A stretch of DNA of 64,000 bases. Origin: Escherichia phage vB-Eco-KMB40. The translations under genes and the position numbers were made by a program. Below, piece after piece: positions 2,454 to 60,547 of the stretch (positions are counted from its first letter, which is position 1; every line of letters begins with the position of its first letter). The stretch is taken from the sequence record OR539220.1. One strand, written 5' to 3'. Under the pieces are notes generated by a model. It saw only the letters and a list, made by a program, of their open reading frames with translations, searched no databases and was not told the DNA's origin.

Positions 2454-4270
2454 TACTGACTCATCCATTCTTTACGAAGGTCAGCATTATCTCCCATGAG
2501 CATTTCAAAAAGCTCTTTCCAGTTCTCAGGAAGTTTAACAACATCATATACTGGATTTTGAATCATCTCACGATATTCAGATTTTTCCAAAGAGCCAAGT
2601 CCCTTAATATAACGGATGCTATGTTTAGGTAGAGCATCTTTGGCACTCTCATATTCAGCGACTGTATAAAACCATTCTTGTTTTTTACCGACCTGAGCGA
2701 TGATTACAGGAGTTTTGACAAAACGAATTCGTCCTTGCTCAAACAATTCTGGCCAATTACTAAAAAATCCGAGCAAAGAAGGATAAATGCTTCCTAGACC
2801 ATCATGGTCAGCATCAGTCATAATAGCAATATTATGATAATTCAAGTTTTCAGCTTTTTCACCGAGAACTAATCCAGTGATTGCGCAAATATCAAATAGT
2901 TCTTTGTTTTTAAGCATATCTGCATAAGACATACCCCAACTGTTGAGAACTTTACCGCGCAATGGATAACCACCGTGAAGTTCTTTATCGCGAACATCAA
3001 TAAGATATCCGATAGCAGAATCACCCTCAGTCAAGAAAAGAGTAGTGTCAGCATCTTTACCACAAAGATTCGCTTTGATATGTTTATGAACCTTAGCTTT
3101 AGAAGCCTTTTTAGCTGCTTTAGTTTCTGCTGCTTTTTCTGCTGCCAATTTACGAGCCAAAGCAGCTTCAATAATTGGCATCAAAATTGCTTCATTATTT
3201 AGAATAGCACGTGAAATCTTTTTAGCATCAAGCTGAATATGACTACGGATTTCACCAAATGGAGAAGTCAAACGCTCTTTAGTTTGAGAATCAAATCGCA
3301 TGTTTTTCATATCACGAACAAACATAACGATAGTCAAACATTCTTTGACACGCGCTTTAGTTACATCAATTTTGAACTTACGTTTGATTTGTGGAATAAG
3401 GTCTTCACAAATATCATCCATAACACAGTCAATGTGATGGCCACCATTCTTAGTATGAATGTTATTGACGTATGTTAATTGACGAAATCCATCCGGTGAA
3501 CGACCAACCGCAATAGAACAATTTTCTTGTTCTTGAACAATAGCATGTTCATCATACTGTCGTGCATATTTCTTAAAATTGCCCTGAACCTTTTTACCAT
3601 TAAAGGTAAATTGAATATCAGGATAAACAACAGCAAGTGTCTGGAGACGATCTAATGTAATGTCAAGATAAACCTGAGATAGCTCATTAGTTTCAAATGA
3701 CATAAAATCAGGAATGAAAGTAACGCGAGTTCCTTTCCATTTTCCAGGAATATCTTCCCATGATTTATTTTCCATGCCATTTGAACAACGAACTACAATA
3801 TTATTTTGACCATCACCAGTTTCACCGACAAACATCACAGAAAAAATGTTTGTCAAACTAGAACCAACACCATTCATACCGCCGGTGACGCGTTCTTTAT
3901 CATCACCGAAGTTACCACCTGCTTTTGGAATAGTCCATGCAGCAACAGGACCAGGAATTTCTTCACCGGTAGGTGTTTTAACCATCGCTTGCGGAATACC
4001 ACGACCGTTATCTTCAACTGTTACTTGATTGTTTTTAATAGTAACATTAATTTTATTTGCGAATTTAAACTTAGTACGAATACCTTCATCTACTGAGTTA
4101 TCGATAATTTCATCAATAAGCTTAACAAGACCAGGTACATACTGAACACTTTCCCATTTACCAAACAGAAAGCGCTCATGCATTTCATTAGCAGAAGAGC
4201 CAATGTACATGCCACTACGCTTTTTGATATGTTCAATATCGCTCAGAATTTTAATTTCATTCTTAATCAT
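2453..4270 (-). CDS. 39: DNA topoisomerase II large subunit, unsplit (605 aa)
   Basis: GyrB-like ATPase motifs, N-terminus MIKNEIKILSDIEHIKKRSGMYIGS as T4 gp39; continuous ORF covers the part encoded separately by gene 60 in T4; track start at 4273 is GTG, ATG at 4270. Confidence 0.9.
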   Translation of the reverse strand: MIKNEIKILSDIEHIKKRSGMYIGSSANEMHERFLFGKWESVQYVPGLVKLIDEIIDNSVDEGIRTKFKFANKINVTIKNNQVTVEDNGRGIPQAMVKTPTGEEIPGPVAAWTIPKAGGNFGDDKERVTGGMNGVGSSLTNIFSVMFVGETGDGQNNIVVRCSNGMENKSWEDIPGKWKGTRVTFIPDFMSFETNELSQVYLDITLDRLQTLAVVYPDIQFTFNGKKVQGNFKKYARQYDEHAIVQEQENCSIAVGRSPDGFRQLTYVNNIHTKNGGHHIDCVMDDICEDLIPQIKRKFKIDVTKARVKECLTIVMFVRDMKNMRFDSQTKERLTSPFGEIRSHIQLDAKKISRAILNNEAILMPIIEAALARKLAAEKAAETKAAKKASKAKVHKHIKANLCGKDADTTLFLTEGDSAIGYLIDVRDKELHGGYPLRGKVLNSWGMSYADMLKNKELFDICAITGLVLGEKAENLNYHNIAIMTDADHDGLGSIYPSLLGFFSNWPELFEQGRIRFVKTPVIIAQVGKKQEWFYTVAEYESAKDALPKHSIRYIKGLGSLEKSEYREMIQNPVYDVVKLPENWKELFEMLMGDNADLRKEWMSQ

Positions 4271-4297
4271 CACTTATCCTCGTTTGGTTTCGGGAAT

Positions 4298-4322
4298 ATT
4301 ATACTCCGGTAATCATAAAGCT
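4298..4322 (-). promoter_or_regulatory. candidate middle promoter (MotA-box-like AGCTTTA, 12-nt spacer, TATAAT)
   Basis: minus strand AGCTTTA at 4316-4322, TATAAT at 4298-4303; upstream of gene 39 start. Confidence 0.4.
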
Positions 4323-4340
4323 AAAGGCCCGAAGGCCTTT
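4323..4340 (-). terminator. intrinsic terminator hairpin (UUCG loop)
   Basis: AAAGGCC-cgaa-GGCCTTT perfect 7-bp stem, U-rich flank; right after stop of 4340..4600 ORF. Confidence 0.6.
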
Positions 4341-4600
4341 TATTTAAAACGGATAGTCGAATCCTTAAAGAACAGCCCAGAACATACTGTTCCTTCTACT
4401 TTCTGCCCAGTAGGTCCAATAGCACGAAATCCAGTATGCTGGAAATCATTTTCAGAGCAACCGAACCAATTATATCCAGTGATTTCAATATTAGTAAAAC
4501 CACTTGAAGACAAAACTTTAGTTGCATTATCAGCATCAGTACATCCTACTAAAGACACTACTAATACTAATGCTGCAATAGAACGATTAATATATTTCAT
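4340..4600 (-). CDS. predicted lipoprotein (86 aa)
   Basis: signal peptide with lipobox LVGC; in 39-cef interval. Confidence 0.5.
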   Translation of the reverse strand: MKYINRSIAALVLVVSLVGCTDADNATKVLSSSGFTNIEITGYNWFGCSENDFQHTGFRAIGPTGQKVEGTVCSGLFFKDSTIRFK

Positions 4601-10938: not shown

Positions 10939-11541
10939 TTATAGATTAAATCCTTCAAAATCAAGAGTATAGATATTGTATGTTGAACACTTTTTGTACT
11001 CATATCTATCTGCAATTCTAAATACACTTCCAGCTGGTATCATTACTTCTTGTTCATCTGAAACTAATTCCATATTACGATAACGATGACTATCCGGAAA
11101 CTTAAAGTTTGGATTGTATTCTTTACAGCGTAGAGCTTTTATAGCATACTCCTGGAAATTGAATACCATAGGAGCTTTGAATTCAAAAATAACTTGTGTG
11201 TTATACTCTAAACCGGAAGCAAAATGTAGAGCTATATTTTTATCATATGAAGCTGATACTACTTTATCAAATTTAATAATATCAATTCCTTGATTTAATA
11301 CTTGTTTAGTCTCAGCTGGAACACCTCTCCAAAGAGGTTTATCGTTTGGAACCAAACGAGATTTGATTATTTCATTTAACCAAGTATGGTCATCTGGTTT
11401 GTTGGTAATACAATGAATTAAAAGTTCAATTTCAGATAAATTAAACCCTTCAGAAAGTAATTCTTCACGAATAGAAGCACGCACCGATGCATCCATTGAT
11501 TTTATTTTAAAATCTTTTAGTTGCATTACTGAGTATTTCAT
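10939..11541 (-). CDS. modA: ADP-ribosyltransferase ModA (200 aa)
   Basis: 200 aa as T4 ModA; adjacent paralogue; position after srd. Confidence 0.7.
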   Translation of the reverse strand: MKYSVMQLKDFKIKSMDASVRASIREELLSEGFNLSEIELLIHCITNKPDDHTWLNEIIKSRLVPNDKPLWRGVPAETKQVLNQGIDIIKFDKVVSASYDKNIALHFASGLEYNTQVIFEFKAPMVFNFQEYAIKALRCKEYNPNFKFPDSHRYRNMELVSDEQEVMIPAGSVFRIADRYEYKKCSTYNIYTLDFEGFNL

Positions 11542-12161
11542 TCAACTACCTCAATATCATAAACTTTAAATGTTCCAAATGAATCGTGTAATTTTTCTTT
11601 TGAAATAGAAGTTATTCTATACTTTCCAATTGGAATCATCCATTCTTGTTCACGCACAATCATCATTAAGTTATCAGTACGCTCTGAATCTAATCCATCA
11701 GTATCTTCATATGTATACTTAAACTCAGTATTAGGAGAAGAAAGTATAATATCGCTGATATGGTCAGAATAATTAAAAGCTTTATCAGTTTTTAAACGAA
11801 GTATTATTTTAGTAAAATATTCAGCATAAGAAAAAGAACATGCTGTGAGCAAACTAGTAGTAAATGAATCTACTCTGTTCGTTGAAAACACTTCTCCAAC
11901 TTGTAAATCTTTAATAAGTTCTTTTGTCGATTTTGATATACCACGATATAACTGATATGGTGATTTAGTTAAATGCTTTTTAACGATTTTATTCAACTGC
12001 CGATGAAGAGCTTCATTCTTTTTGGCTTCCATACATTGCCAAAGAACAGATTGCTCAAAGTCAGTAAATTTTTCACAGACCTTTTTATACATATCATATT
12101 GAAAATCAACGCTTTCAGCTTTTATAGATAACTGTTCAACATCTGCAAGATTAATAATCAT
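11538..12161 (-). CDS. modB: ADP-ribosyltransferase ModB (207 aa)
   Basis: 207 aa as T4 ModB; SD GGAGG. Confidence 0.7.
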   Translation of the reverse strand: MIINLADVEQLSIKAESVDFQYDMYKKVCEKFTDFEQSVLWQCMEAKKNEALHRQLNKIVKKHLTKSPYQLYRGISKSTKELIKDLQVGEVFSTNRVDSFTTSLLTACSFSYAEYFTKIILRLKTDKAFNYSDHISDIILSSPNTEFKYTYEDTDGLDSERTDNLMMIVREQEWMIPIGKYRITSISKEKLHDSFGTFKVYDIEVVE

Positions 12162-55623: not shown

Positions 55624-55836
55624 TCATTTTTGTCCTGTATTTACTTTATGCCGATGCACGGCCTTAACTTTATCAAGGTATTTTTCAAAATTTCGCAATC
55701 TAGTATAGTCTGCCGGAGATTGGTTGAGTGATACTTCTCGACGCAAAGCTGAAATAACATTTCCAACTTCCCTACGAATTTCATCTAATTGAAGAACAGT
55801 AAGATTGCGAAGTTGCTTTTCAGTTAATTGTAGCAT
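55624..55836 (-). CDS. rI.1-position small protein (70 aa)
   Basis: ORF between tk and rI. Confidence 0.45.
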
Positions 55837-55861
55837 ATATACCCCTTTAGTTAGATAAACC

Positions 55862-55869
55862 TATTTATA
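55862..55869 (-). promoter_or_regulatory. late promoter TATAAATA upstream of rI.1/rI
   Basis: exact TATAAATA on minus strand between tk stop and rI.1 start. Confidence 0.55.
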
Positions 55870-55878
55870 ACTTTTGCA

Positions 55879-56460
55879 CTAACCGAGCTTTTTAGTTAAT
55901 TCATTCCAGTGTTTTCTACACAAAGAAACATAAATTTCATCACCAATACAGATTTGATTACCTTCTTTAACTGGTGTTCCATCTTCCATTAATCGAGCTG
56001 TCATAATCGCTTTTTTACCACAATGACAAACTGCCTTTAGTTCAATAAGTTTATCTGCAATCGCCAAAAGTTCTTTAGAACCTTCAAACAATTTTCCAGC
56101 GAAATCAGTCCTTAATCCATAAGCCATAACAGGAACATTATATGTATCAACAATTCGACTTAATTGATGCACCTGTTCAGTTTTTAAAAACTGAGCTTCA
56201 TCTACAAATACGCAATGAATATCTTTTTGTGCTTCAGCCCATTTATAGAACTCGAAAATATCCATATCATCTGTAATAATATTCGCTTCCTGTTTAATTC
56301 CAATGCGAGAAACAACTTCACAGACAGAATCGCGAGTATCAATAGCAGGCTTAAGAACTAATACACTCATTCCACGTTCTTTATAATTATGTGCAGCAGT
56401 CAAAAGAGAAGCAGATTTTCCAGCATTCATTGCTGCATAAGTAAAAATTAAACTCGCCAT
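55879..56460 (-). CDS. tk: thymidine kinase (193 aa)
   Basis: P-loop AAMNAGKS, zinc-binding Cys pairs; 193 aa as T4 Tk. Confidence 0.9.
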   Translation of the reverse strand: MASLIFTYAAMNAGKSASLLTAAHNYKERGMSVLVLKPAIDTRDSVCEVVSRIGIKQEANIITDDMDIFEFYKWAEAQKDIHCVFVDEAQFLKTEQVHQLSRIVDTYNVPVMAYGLRTDFAGKLFEGSKELLAIADKLIELKAVCHCGKKAIMTARLMEDGTPVKEGNQICIGDEIYVSLCRKHWNELTKKLG

Positions 56461-56469
56461 ATCACCTTC

Positions 56470-56655
56470 TTAAAGCGTATTCACATAAGCTATTAATTCA
56501 TTTTCTTTCTTATCAAACCGATCAGCAAATTCTTCCTGCTGTTCGGGAGATAGCGGGCCGTATTCATCATAAAAGGTGTTTGCTTCTGTATGCTCATCTA
56601 GAAGTTCATGGATAAGCCCAAACAATTTATCTTTTTGTTCTTTACTCAGACTCAT
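56470..56655 (-). CDS. hypothetical acidic small protein (61 aa)
   Basis: ORF upstream of tk. Confidence 0.4.
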   Translation of the reverse strand: MSLSKEQKDKLFGLIHELLDEHTEANTFYDEYGPLSPEQQEEFADRFDKKENELIAYVNTL

Positions 56656-56825
56656 ATATTAATTTCCAGGAGTTTTAAAATAATTCGCTTTTGCTTAAAT
56701 ATTTCCATAGTTAAATGACCAGTATCTTTTTGACCGATTCCAATGGCAAAACCTTTATTAACAGCGAGTTCAATTAAATTATCAAGCTCACGTAACACTT
56801 CGTATTGTAACTCAAAACTATTCAT
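56652..56825 (-). CDS. hypothetical small protein (57 aa), not in ORF track
   Basis: MNSFELQYEVLRELDNLIELAVNKGFAIGIGQKD...; ATGA overlaps at both ends. Confidence 0.4.
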   Translation of the reverse strand: MNSFELQYEVLRELDNLIELAVNKGFAIGIGQKDTGHLTMEIFKQKRIILKLLEINI

Positions 56826-57034
56826 TTTGGTTTACCTTCTTTAACGAAATCTGGATAAGGATAAAATCCCGAATAAAATCCTTCACCTTTATGATTGATG
56901 CATCCTTTATTAGAACAATAGCACCAATAATCAAAATCACAAGCCATTTCATCGTTGCATAAAGCAAAAACAACCGGCCATTTACACTTTTCACAATGAG
57001 CATTTTTAAGAATACTAGTTTGGCTCATAACCAT
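56822..57034 (-). CDS. Cys-rich small protein (70 aa)
   Basis: multiple Cys/His (CEKCKW...CYCSNKGCINHKGEGF). Confidence 0.4.
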   Translation of the reverse strand: MVMSQTSILKNAHCEKCKWPVVFALCNDEMACDFDYWCYCSNKGCINHKGEGFYSGFYPYPDFVKEGKPK

Positions 57035-57237
57035 GTAACCTTTAAGCAGTATTCTTCTACATGTTGTTTACGACCTTTCTTATCAATAAAGGTATATTCA
57101 ACGAATGTTCCAATGTAGTCTTTATCTACATCATGTGGACTATTAATTGGACATTTAGTACGGCAAATGCGTTCCCATTGACGAATAATTTCCACTTTGT
57201 TTTTAGGATCAAACGGATGTGGGTAATGTACTTTCAT
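57025..57237 (-). CDS. hypothetical small protein (70 aa)
   Basis: ORF in tk-regB cluster. Confidence 0.4.
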   Translation of the reverse strand: MKVHYPHPFDPKNKVEIIRQWERICRTKCPINSPHDVDKDYIGTFVEYTFIDKKGRKQHVEEYCLKVTWL

Positions 57238-57688
57238 AATCCACCACTATTAAATCAATATCAGGAGTAAACATGTCGATTAATTTAGAAACCTTATCCC
57301 AATCGCCGCCAGCAATACCACAACCTATGCGTGGAATGTAAATTACTGGTTTAAACAAAAGGGTTTCTGCCTGTAGATTTAATTCTATCATGCAGTTTAC
57401 TAAAGCACCATAATCAAGATTAGGACCTGGTTCGTATTGCGTATACAGGTTATAGCATACACCAAAACCATTAGGTTTATGTTTAAAAACAATAGACATA
57501 TCGCCTAATTTATCACGAGAACCGTACTCAGTAGTGGTTTTATCTATTTCTAAAATTTTGGGATAGGCTCTTGCTAATTGACCAGCTACACCTGAACCCA
57601 TAGTATGAAAACAATTGCACCCGTGCGCAATAATATTACCTTGAAGAAATAGGGCGACAATATCGCCCTTGATATATTTTACAATCAT
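57209..57688 (-). CDS. possible macro-domain (ADP-ribose binding/hydrolase) protein (159 aa)
   Basis: motif HGCNCFHTMGSGVAGQLARAYP; assignment tentative. Confidence 0.35.
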   Translation of the reverse strand: MIVKYIKGDIVALFLQGNIIAHGCNCFHTMGSGVAGQLARAYPKILEIDKTTTEYGSRDKLGDMSIVFKHKPNGFGVCYNLYTQYEPGPNLDYGALVNCMIELNLQAETLLFKPVIYIPRIGCGIAGGDWDKVSKLIDMFTPDIDLIVVDYESTLPTSV

Positions 57689-58026
57689 CTAGTACTCAAT
57701 CCTCGATTATAAGAATCTACCAAACGGTCAACCATTGAATGACAAGCGGCTTTATCTTTCTCCTCCGCAACTGAACATTCTAAGGTATTCCACTTTTTAG
57801 CATATCGTTTTAACAATGTATCATTTTTGTATCTGCTTGATTTATCTCTTTCTCCGTCTTTATATGCATATATTAATTTCTGTGCAAATTCAGCTTGGCA
57901 TGCTTTATTTTTCCCGCAATAATCCGCTGCAGTACGGTTTACATACTCTCTAATTTCAGTATATGATGTATCTGCTAACGCAGAAAATGAAATTAATCCT
58001 ATACATAAAACCAAAATTTTAGTCAT
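57685..58026 (-). CDS. secreted protein (113 aa), at position of vs
   Basis: signal peptide MTKILVLCIGLISFSALA. Confidence 0.4.
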   Translation of the reverse strand: MTKILVLCIGLISFSALADTSYTEIREYVNRTAADYCGKNKACQAEFAQKLIYAYKDGERDKSSRYKNDTLLKRYAKKWNTLECSVAEEKDKAACHSMVDRLVDSYNRGLSTR

Positions 58027-58564
58027 TTACTATTTCCAAAAGTTTATTATTTTTAAGGTAATTAGCCTTTTCTAGGACTTCAGAAGCATATTTAGAACCT
58101 GCTTTAACATTCCATCCCGAATTATAAGAGGATATTGCTTTTCTTATATCGCCCTTATGTATATTTAACCAATAAGAAAGTTCAATGTACGCCCAGGAAG
58201 CTGAATTGGACCGTTTATTCAACATTCTTTTTATTTCAGCATCGGTCATATTATAACCAAGTTCCTTAACTCTCGCTCGCATAGTAGGCAAATAATTTTG
58301 GAACATTCCATAAGCGTGATGCTTTGGTTTAGATTTTAAATTAACTCCGCCAGAGCTTTCTTGCCATAAAATGGCTGCCATTATATGACCTAATCCGCTC
58401 TTGTGGATATTTTTATGTGTTTTATATTTTCCATCCTTAGAAAATTGTTCCCCGAATTGATACGCGTAACGCATGTTATCGAGTTGGACATTACTGAAAG
58501 TATGCTCGGAGCTATGTGCCATCATTGAAATGGCCAATAGACCAGCGAGTAGTGCTTTTCTCAT
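58019..58564 (-). CDS. secreted lytic-transglycosylase-like protein (181 aa)
   Basis: signal peptide; SLT-like motif AAILWQESSGG. Confidence 0.5.
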   Translation of the reverse strand: MRKALLAGLLAISMMAHSSEHTFSNVQLDNMRYAYQFGEQFSKDGKYKTHKNIHKSGLGHIMAAILWQESSGGVNLKSKPKHHAYGMFQNYLPTMRARVKELGYNMTDAEIKRMLNKRSNSASWAYIELSYWLNIHKGDIRKAISSYNSGWNVKAGSKYASEVLEKANYLKNNKLLEIVND

Positions 58565-58571
58565 GCTTACC

Positions 58572-59033
58572 TCATTGAGTTTTAATTACTGCTTTAGAAG
58601 CCTTTCCTGGTAAACGACGACTGTTGATAATTGCCATCCTACATTGAAGTGACGGGTCTTTGAACTTCTCATTAGGTTTACAAACTGTAAATCCAAGCCA
58701 AAGATTTCCATCTGTAATTTCTAAACGTCCAGGACGATATTCAACTCCATCAATAAAATCCTCATCAATGTCAGGACGCGGAGGCATACTCAGGAATTCA
58801 TTAACTTCTAAAACATGGTCTTTTATTTTATGGAATAATTCAAAAACATATGTCTCATCAATCTCCCGTTGAATTGCACGATCAAGAAGATGTTGAGAAT
58901 ATTTTAGATGAAACGATGAGACCCCTGCTGCTTTTGATGCCTCACGAATCTCATTGTTAATTTGACGAAACTCCGACTCAAAGTGACGACGAAGCTTATT
59001 TCGACGGATAAAAACTTCTGTATTGATAGTCAT
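58572..59033 (-). CDS. regB: RegB endoribonuclease (153 aa)
   Basis: 153 aa as T4 RegB; promoter and SD upstream. Confidence 0.8.
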   Translation of the reverse strand: MTINTEVFIRRNKLRRHFESEFRQINNEIREASKAAGVSSFHLKYSQHLLDRAIQREIDETYVFELFHKIKDHVLEVNEFLSMPPRPDIDEDFIDGVEYRPGRLEITDGNLWLGFTVCKPNEKFKDPSLQCRMAIINSRRLPGKASKAVIKTQ

Positions 59034-59059
59034 GTTATTCTCCTCTTAACTGATAGAAA

Positions 59060-59089
59060 AATTATACCACAGTCAAGAGGAAAAGTAAA
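59060..59089 (-). promoter_or_regulatory. early sigma70-type promoter for regB
   Basis: GTTTAC at 59084-59089, TATAAT at 59060-59065. Confidence 0.55.
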
Positions 59090-59092
59090 CAG

Positions 59093-59371
59093 TTATTCTT
59101 TAAATCTAATCAATTTATTCATAGACTTTGAAACTTCTGCACGAACCTCATGTAAGTTTTTAAGCTGTTCAAGACGCTGCGTATAGTAAGCAATTTCATC
59201 TTCTTCGAGACAGTCCTGTGAATCTTCTTTAAGATAACGTGCATAGTCCTGGAAAGCTTTACGGACTACTTCCTGGAAGTCATCAAGACTTTGAATTTTC
59301 TTAGGAGCGACAGATACACGACGAGGTGCAGTATAATACTCATAACCAAACCCTGCGCTTAATTGAGCCAT
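59093..59371 (-). CDS. vs.3-position protein (92 aa)
   Basis: ATG at 59371 overlaps upstream stop (TAATG); track ORF starts further upstream. Confidence 0.4.
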
Positions 59372-59637
59372 TAGTATTTTTCCTCTGGTTGGAACACTGC
59401 GCGACAAGCCCACATACTGGCTTCTTTGAGTTTCGTTTTAGCAATAGTTAACTGATCGAGGCTTTCGGCGTAATTCTTCGCGAGTTCATCATCTTCACAG
59501 CTATCAAATGCTTCCCAAAATTCATCGTATAAAGCATCAAAGATAAGTCCTAAACGAACTTCAGCGTCTTTAATAGCATTTACTTTACCGATTTTTTCGT
59601 CGGTATGTGGCTTATAACCTTTAATATCTTCAATCAT
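59371..59637 (-). CDS. acb2: vs.4-position protein, possible Acb2 cyclic-oligonucleotide sponge (88 aa)
   Basis: ATG at 59637 with SD GAGGAAG; second ORF upstream of regB; identification from recollection of T4 Vs.4. Confidence 0.4.
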
Positions 59638-59851
59638 ATTTGACTTCCTCACCAGTACATAAATCGTATTCAACTAAACGAATAGGTTCATGAATGCCAT
59701 ATCCCTGAACAGAAATTTCTGTAGTAGGATAAATTCCATTAATATCACCCATGTTCCATGCTTCGTTAAATTGCTGTTCGCCTGAATTACTAAACCATTC
59801 GGCGAAAGCATTTAGCACATCTTCAGAACCTTCAATAATTATCTTTGCCAT
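59630..59851 (-). CDS. hypothetical small protein (73 aa)
   Basis: ORF in vs cluster. Confidence 0.4.
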   Translation of the reverse strand: MAKIIIEGSEDVLNAFAEWFSNSGEQQFNEAWNMGDINGIYPTTEISVQGYGIHEPIRLVEYDLCTGEEVKYD

Positions 59852-60213
59852 TACAAACTCTCGGTAAAGGTACGAGCGATAACGTCGCGCTGCTGTTCCG
59901 GAGTCAGAGAGTTAAAGCGAACTGCATAACCGGATACACGGATGGTCAGCTGCGGATATTTTTCCGGATGCTTAACTGCATCTTCCAGAGTTTCACGACG
60001 CAGAACGTTAACGTTCAGGTGTTGACCACCTTCAATTTTAACTGTAGGTTGTGGCTCAATTTCAATTTCACGGGCATGCAAACCATAGAAAATTTCTGGG
60101 TCTACAAAAGAGTCCTCTTTAAAGGTTTTAGAGACAATAATTCGTGCTTGAATACCATCTTCAAAATAAATAGTACCTTTATGTGTGCCTTCAAGAATTT
60201 GATATGCTTTCAT
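59851..60213 (-). CDS. autonomous glycyl-radical cofactor, GrcA/YfiD-like (120 aa)
   Basis: glycyl radical signature RVSGYAVRF and GQHLNVNVL...[15 protein letters not shown]. Confidence 0.7.
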
Positions 60214-60220
60214 ATAAACC

Positions 60221-60547
60221 TCAATTAGAAAATAAATTTATCCAAGATTGTTCTTTAATTAAAAATGGCTCAGAATCATATGCCATTAAACTTTGGGTGA
60301 TTAGTCCTTTAAAAGGTCCATCAATAAATTCCATGGTAAAATATGGAATTTTATTCATTAACTGTGCGTTAGGAGCAGTGCACAAAACTCTGCATCCTTT
60401 GAATACGCCTTTTTGTAATTTGTATTGCTTGGGATAAAATTCGCTTAAAATGTTGTTATTTGCCAAAATTTCAAAATGATTTACCAATTTATTTTTAATA
60501 GTTTTTGGCGAAAAATAGAGATATTCGAAAAGCTGTGTGTCTGTCAT
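60221..60547 (-). CDS. hypothetical protein (108 aa)
   Basis: track ORF trimmed to ATG at 60547 (TAATG overlap with upstream stop). Confidence 0.4.

Follow-up and report, generated by a model that had tools for sequence, protein, structure and literature searches.

The tk.4 (adfM) allele of Escherichia phage vB-Eco-KMB40 encodes a macrodomain protein with a predicted Gln-type active site and forms a hypervariable cassette

The open reading frame (ORF) at positions 57209–57688, on the minus strand of Escherichia phage vB-Eco-KMB40, is an allele of tk.4 (adfM) of phage T4 and encodes a single-domain macrodomain protein of 159 aa. The window, that is, the whole stretch of 64,000 nucleotides analyzed here, represents a Tequatrovirus (T4-like) genome. 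The preferred reading, with a probability of roughly 0.7, is that this protein hydrolyses the thymidine-ADP-ribose installed by DarT2 on phage single-stranded DNA, using a Gln-dependent macrodomain mechanism. The gene is already known. What is added here is the putative Gln-type site, the separation from the lineage of phage PhiKZ, and the hypervariable cassette. T4 depends on this macrodomain gene as a counter-defence to DarTG2, and its presence in the phage is useful for host-range prediction on DarTG2-bearing strains.

The gene order on the minus strand, in the direction of transcription, is regB, vs.1 (with an SLT domain), vs, tk.4, a gene for a DUF7202 protein, a gene for a 70-aa phage zinc-binding protein, two small ORFs, and tk. 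Pfam identifies regB (REGB_T4, 8e-69) and tk (TK, 6e-61). The protein identities to T4 (NC_000866) are 100% for regB, 100% for vs.1, 97% for vs, 92.9% for tk.3, and 99.5% for tk, and the order of these five flanking genes is that of T4. Because the flanks match T4 in both identity and order, the ORF is placed in the T4 tk.4 slot between vs and tk.3. Its product is aligned with T4 Tk.4 (NP_049723), a single macrodomain of similar length from the same slot, over 155 aa at 57% identity without gaps (E 9e-70). Based on the slot and the full-length homology, the ORF is an allele of T4 tk.4. The initial annotation had located it in the tk-regB interval, and the Pfam matches and the T4 synteny agree with this. 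The ORF at 57025–57237 (70 aa, DUF7202) was considered as an extra gene missing from T4, but BLASTP identifies it as tk.3, at 92.9% identity.

The gene starts with ATG, and this codon overlaps the vs stop codon in the sequence ATGA (57685–57688, minus strand). The same ATGA arrangement is seen between vs and tk.4 in T4. Read from the sequence, the overlap probably reflects translational coupling of the two genes. At the other end, the KMB40 allele has a 4-residue C-terminal extension in comparison with T4 Tk.4, and according to the ORF coordinates it overlaps the start of tk.3 by 29 nt (57209–57237, minus strand). The C-terminal 8 residues are not conserved and are modelled with low confidence (mean pLDDT of the final block, 64). 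Only one opposite-strand ORF of at least 60 aa overlaps tk.4; it is located at 57061–57270 (69 aa), spans the tk.3/tk.4 junction, and reaches just the 3' end of tk.4. At 57651–57669 (minus strand), within codons 7–13 of tk.4, the GC-rich sequence AGGGCGATATTGTCGCCCT makes up a perfect 8-bp hairpin, and a T-rich stretch comes after it. It was detected as a terminator-like match in the scan, yet it is intragenic, and the T4 sequence is identical. A scan of 55800–60500 for sigma-70-like promoters found 16 sites, against 18.5 ± 4.4 in shuffled sequence. Since the sites in this interval are not in excess of those in shuffled sequence, no promoter was assigned.

The protein is a macrodomain, based on the sequence profile, the predicted fold, and the synteny together. 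Pfam Macro (PF01661) matches it with 33.1 bits (E 5.9e-8; gathering cutoff, 22 bits) over profile positions 2–117 of 118. All significant phmmer matches among the PDB sequences are macrodomains: BT1257 (1.5e-10), yeast Poa1p (1.5e-9), SCO6735 (8e-8), DarG of Mtb (2.5e-5), and TARG1/OARD1 (9e-3). The AlphaFold2 model, calculated from an alignment of 64 homologues without the T4 row, has a mean pLDDT of 93.7 and a pTM of 0.88, and is predicted to adopt the three-layer alpha/beta/alpha macro fold. The structure prediction proposed in the initial annotation as a check thus returned a macro-like fold. In both structure and sequence its closest neighbours are ALC1/TARG1-like (Poa1p-like) macrodomains, not members of the MacroD, PARG, or viral X-domain classes, and the protein is assigned to the ALC1/TARG1-like class on account of the Pfam, phmmer, and AlphaFold2 results. 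Macro domains are found in 41% of myoviruses according to Iyer et al. (PMC9503650).

Two Gly-rich motifs define a macrodomain, a GxG loop after the second conserved strand and a Gly-rich phosphate loop (PMC9503650). Both are present here, as G31-S32-G33 and as PRIGCGIAGG from P119 to G128, and they are invariant or near-invariant in 65 homologues. The GxG motif lies in the substrate-binding loop HGCNCFHTMGSGVAGQLARAYP, which occupies residues 22–43 (57560–57625, minus strand) and is followed by helix 1. It is this loop that had been noticed for its resemblance to the Gly-rich loop of macrodomains, and the resemblance is real, given the PF01661 score above the cutoff, the phmmer matches, and the GxG. 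The family alignments show H22, G23, N25, C26, and G33 as the invariant residues of this loop. Across the 65 homologues these five are invariant together with G8, A35, D49, N80, Y82, Q84, P119, G122, G124, and W130, and I121, A126, G127, and G128 are near-invariant. The second Gly-rich loop, PRIGCGIAGG (57305–57334, minus strand), is the phosphate-binding loop; the initial annotation did not mention it.

Columns of the active site were compared with MAFFT among the Tk.4 alleles, SCO6735, BT1257, ALC1, DarG, and PhiKZ gp104, with sequences taken from PDB alignments and the PhiKZ paper. Q84, in the motif NLYTQ at residues 80–84 (57437–57451, minus strand), falls at the catalytic Lys column. This column contains K80 of DarG (in FPTK), Gln85 of SCO6735, and Gln in BT1257 and ALC1. 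DarG K80 has been equated with K84 of TARG1 (PMC9411070). H22 and N25 are aligned with H24 and N27 of SCO6735, and N25 also with the asparagine of DarG and PhiKZ. The phosphate loop PRIGCGIAGG is aligned with PRIGCGLAGG of SCO6735 and BT1257. Judged from this alignment, Tk.4 is best described as a Gln-type, ALC1-like macrodomain with a loop of DarG length. The active site of the T4-type AdfM is SCO6735-like, not of the Lys type seen in the DarG antitoxin; the remaining value of the observation is modest.

None of the family-invariant residues, H22, N25, and Q84 among them, differs between the KMB40 and T4 alleles, but 43% of all residues do, chiefly past residue 47. The phosphate loop is RIGCGIAGG in the KMB40 allele, which is the family consensus, and RIGAGIGKG in T4 Tk.4.

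T4 lacking adfA and adfN, the latter being gene 30.3, is still resistant to DarTG2, and a further factor was predicted; the DarTG2 plaque assays of that study were done with sub-MIC chloramphenicol (PMC11825919). In the HIDEN-SEQ preprint, tk.4 is the single significant hit losing reads specifically on the DarTG2 host, and a clean tk.4 knockout sensitised T4 to DarTG2, upon which the gene was named adfM (10.1101/2025.11.20.689424). The requirement for tk.4 on a DarTG2 host is documented for the T4 allele only, and enzymatic removal of ADP-ribose from DNA "seems likely" to the authors, who inferred it and did not assay it (10.1101/2025.11.20.689424). Among the searchable literature, this preprint is the only source linking tk.4, a macrodomain, and DarT, and no biochemical assay of any T4-type Tk.4 was found there. 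The macrodomain identity, fold, class, and active-site composition of the KMB40 protein, and its orthology to T4 Tk.4, come from the present analysis. For this 57%-identical allele we infer the hydrolase activity, the substrate, and a T4-like behaviour. The initial annotation considered an ADP-ribose hydrolase plausible with reference to both DarT and ModA/ModB. The genetics of the T4 orthologue, which counters DarT2, supports the first connection (10.1101/2025.11.20.689424); the second, through arginine, finds no support.

A sequence of events can be proposed as follows. The host DarT2 of DarTG2 would ADP-ribosylate thymidines in phage single-stranded DNA and block replication. Tk.4 would bind the ADP-ribose between its Gly-rich loops (residues 22–35 and 119–128) and hydrolyse the thymidine-ADP-ribose bond, by which the DNA would be restored. 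The catalysis is probably of the SCO6735 type, in which Q84 would position the substrate and a water network in place of the Lys of DarG and TARG1. The missing DarG/TARG1 Lys, and an identity of only 57% to the tested T4 allele, speak against the catalytic reading.

SCO6735 of Streptomyces coelicolor (PDB 5E3B) and BT1257 of Bacteroides (2AFC/2FG1) are about 29% identical to the KMB40 allele. Their subclass has Gln at the catalytic Lys position of DarG and TARG1, in common with Q84 of Tk.4. SCO6735 removes thymidine-linked ADP-ribose from DNA, but not guanosine-linked ADP-ribose; Q85A and Q85E abolish the activity, a water-mediated mechanism was proposed, and the mutants analyzed include H24Y and N27S (PMC9411070). 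The subclass is defined by a "mobile loop" that exceeds those of DarG and TARG1 by about five residues (PMC9411070). Both Tk.4 alleles have a gap of 5–6 residues there and correspond to DarG in length. K34 and K89 of SCO6735 are replaced by S32 and G88 in the KMB40 allele. Because the longer "mobile loop" is missing, Tk.4 is not filed under the SCO6735/BT1257 subclass despite the similar active site, and, as this loop and counterparts of K34 and K89 are lacking, the mechanism of SCO6735 may apply only in part. TARG1/OARD1 of human is more distant, with weak sequence similarity (E 9e-3). It uses a Lys84/Asp125 dyad; the corresponding positions of Tk.4 are occupied by Q84 and by a CGIAG loop residue, and no Asp is present.

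The inactive Q85A mutant of SCO6735 still inhibits DarT efficiently in vitro, through interaction (PMC9411070). Because of this direct inhibition of DarT by SCO6735, protection by Tk.4 need not be purely catalytic. Protection could even be mainly non-catalytic, with Tk.4 binding and inhibiting DarT2 or masking the ADP-ribosylated sites, and the missing canonical Lys would fit this as well. However, the ADP-ribose-contacting motifs and the Gln are invariant in the 65 homologues, as expected under selection for catalysis, and no counterpart of the DarT-binding C-terminal domain of DarG is present in Tk.4. Mainly non-catalytic protection is therefore considered improbable.

Database labels point to another activity. 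The T4 RefSeq annotation of tk.4 is "phosphatase; contains A1pp phosphatase motif", PHROG 335 (1.9e-71) is labelled "phosphatase", and other phage records use "Poa1p-like family protein" or "Phage protein with Macro domain". The labels "phosphatase" and "Poa1p-like" stand for and originate from an activity on small soluble metabolites, that is, an ADP-ribose-1''-phosphate phosphatase or an O-acetyl-ADP-ribose deacetylase. The substrate of yeast Poa1p is indeed a small-molecule phosphate ester, but the strong Poa1p match of Tk.4 is confined to residues 3–79, and the sole orthologue phenotype on record is sensitivity to DarTG2. T4 tRNA repair by PNK and Rnl1 is not known to leave a 2'-phosphate junction, so no source of Appr-1''-p is evident. 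Small metabolites are thus a very improbable main substrate, the least probable of the alternatives considered.

Instead of DarT2 products, Tk.4 might reverse or tune other ADP-ribosylation: the arginine modification by Alt, ModA, and ModB, the modification of Glu/Asp in proteins, or uracil-ADP-ribose that other host defence transferases place on RNA. As the initial annotation stated, the phage encodes both ModA (10942–11541, minus strand, 98.5% identity to T4) and ModB (11541–12161, minus strand, 96% identity to T4) in the window. SCO6735 and TARG1 also cleave ADP-ribose from Glu/Asp of proteins and from U of RNA (PMC9411070; PMC13036486). The activities reported for the class are on Glu/Asp-protein, T-DNA, and U-RNA ADP-ribose, and the same papers do not report arginine-linked cleavage; reversal of ModA/ModB modification is for this reason without support. 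In the HIDEN-SEQ screen, the loss of tk.4 reads was specific to the DarTG2 host (10.1101/2025.11.20.689424), and CmdTAC, which ADP-ribosylates mRNA, strongly defends against T4 despite tk.4 (PMC11618068). The CmdTAC paper contains no link to a phage macrodomain; the word appears there only in reference titles on coronavirus (PMC11618068). A main role in these other modifications is doubtful, with little weight given to it, although they could be secondary activities beside the hydrolysis of thymidine-ADP-ribose.

Membership in the DarG family was considered and rejected. The NCBIfam and PADLOC models for DarG match weakly and only with the N-terminal part, and the catalytic Lys is missing. NF048014 (DarG) gives 27.8 bits (cutoff, 250 bits) at positions 2–142 of 338, and the DarG models are matched over the first 142–145 of their 329–338 positions, the KMB40 protein being 159 aa. 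A DarT-binding domain makes up the C-terminal part of DarG (Mtb 5M3I, T. aquaticus 5M31/5M3E) and is absent from Tk.4. DarG adjoins darT, whereas tk.4 of KMB40 is found between vs and tk.3.

PhiKZ gp104, also named AdfM, was shown biochemically to remove ADP-ribose made by DarT2, and its conserved Asn matters for activity, with an N23A construct given in the Methods (PMC13309987). DarG (K80 in T. aquaticus) and PhiKZ gp104 have the Lys of FPTK, in contrast to the Gln of NLYTQ in the KMB40 Tk.4. The match to Mtb DarG is E 9e-25 for PhiKZ gp104 and E 2.5e-5 for the KMB40 Tk.4. Based on the FPTK Lys and the strong DarG match of PhiKZ gp104, the name AdfM covers two phage proteins of different lineages. 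By their sequences, PhiKZ gp104 is DarG-type and T4 Tk.4 represents a Gln-type lineage, and both counter the same toxin.

By tblastn, relatives are found in 2,767 of 50,697 phage records. In 318 records the identity to the KMB40 allele is at least 90%, and the T4 allele class is near 57%. Nucleotide identity to T4 is 93–100% across vs and down to 57659, decreases to 73–87% in the next 120 nt, and is 37–77% in the remaining part of tk.4, to about 57222. It is back to 93–100% in tk.3. The flanks compared with the cassette were 57024–57191 and 57689–58100. Since the identity changes sharply at the gene edges, tk.4 (57222–57658) is considered as a sharply bounded hypervariable cassette. Such a pattern suggests allele exchange or diversifying selection. 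The variation, far above that of the neighbours, invites tests of allele-specific specificity.

It can be speculated, although this is unlikely, that an arms race against DarT2 toxins of various kinds, or against other nucleic-acid ADP-ribosyltransferases, lies behind the hypervariability of tk.4. Each allele class would then counter its own toxin variants or its own substrates, namely dT-ADPr DNA, U-ADPr RNA, or protein Glu-ADPr, and the Gln mechanism would be independent of DarG. If so, an origin of this mechanism apart from DarG would mean that a housekeeping-type hydrolase was recruited, not that an antitoxin was stolen. A bacterial homologue, from Pelagimonas phthalicica (positions 4001–4459 of locus L004) and 40% identical, is a stand-alone macrodomain gene. 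No DarT-like gene adjoins it, and the adjoining genes are unrelated (peptidase M23, Trp halogenase). The stand-alone gene, a single case, fits recruitment of an orphan hydrolase and not capture of an antitoxin.

Two other differences from T4 are seen in this region. The interval between tk and tk.3 (56470–57034, minus strand) is unlike that of T4 and contains three ORFs in place of tk.1 and tk.2: one of 61 aa with 54% identity to T4 Tk.2, one of 57 aa with no match within the T4 tk region, and one of 70 aa with Pfam Phage_zn_bind (PF23895, 2.6e-29). The vs gene (57685–58026, minus strand) encodes 113 aa, against 115 aa in T4, and the nucleotide alignment has gaps near its 5' end. In HIDEN-SEQ, vs is the T4 gene depleted most in minimal medium (10.1101/2025.11.20.689424).
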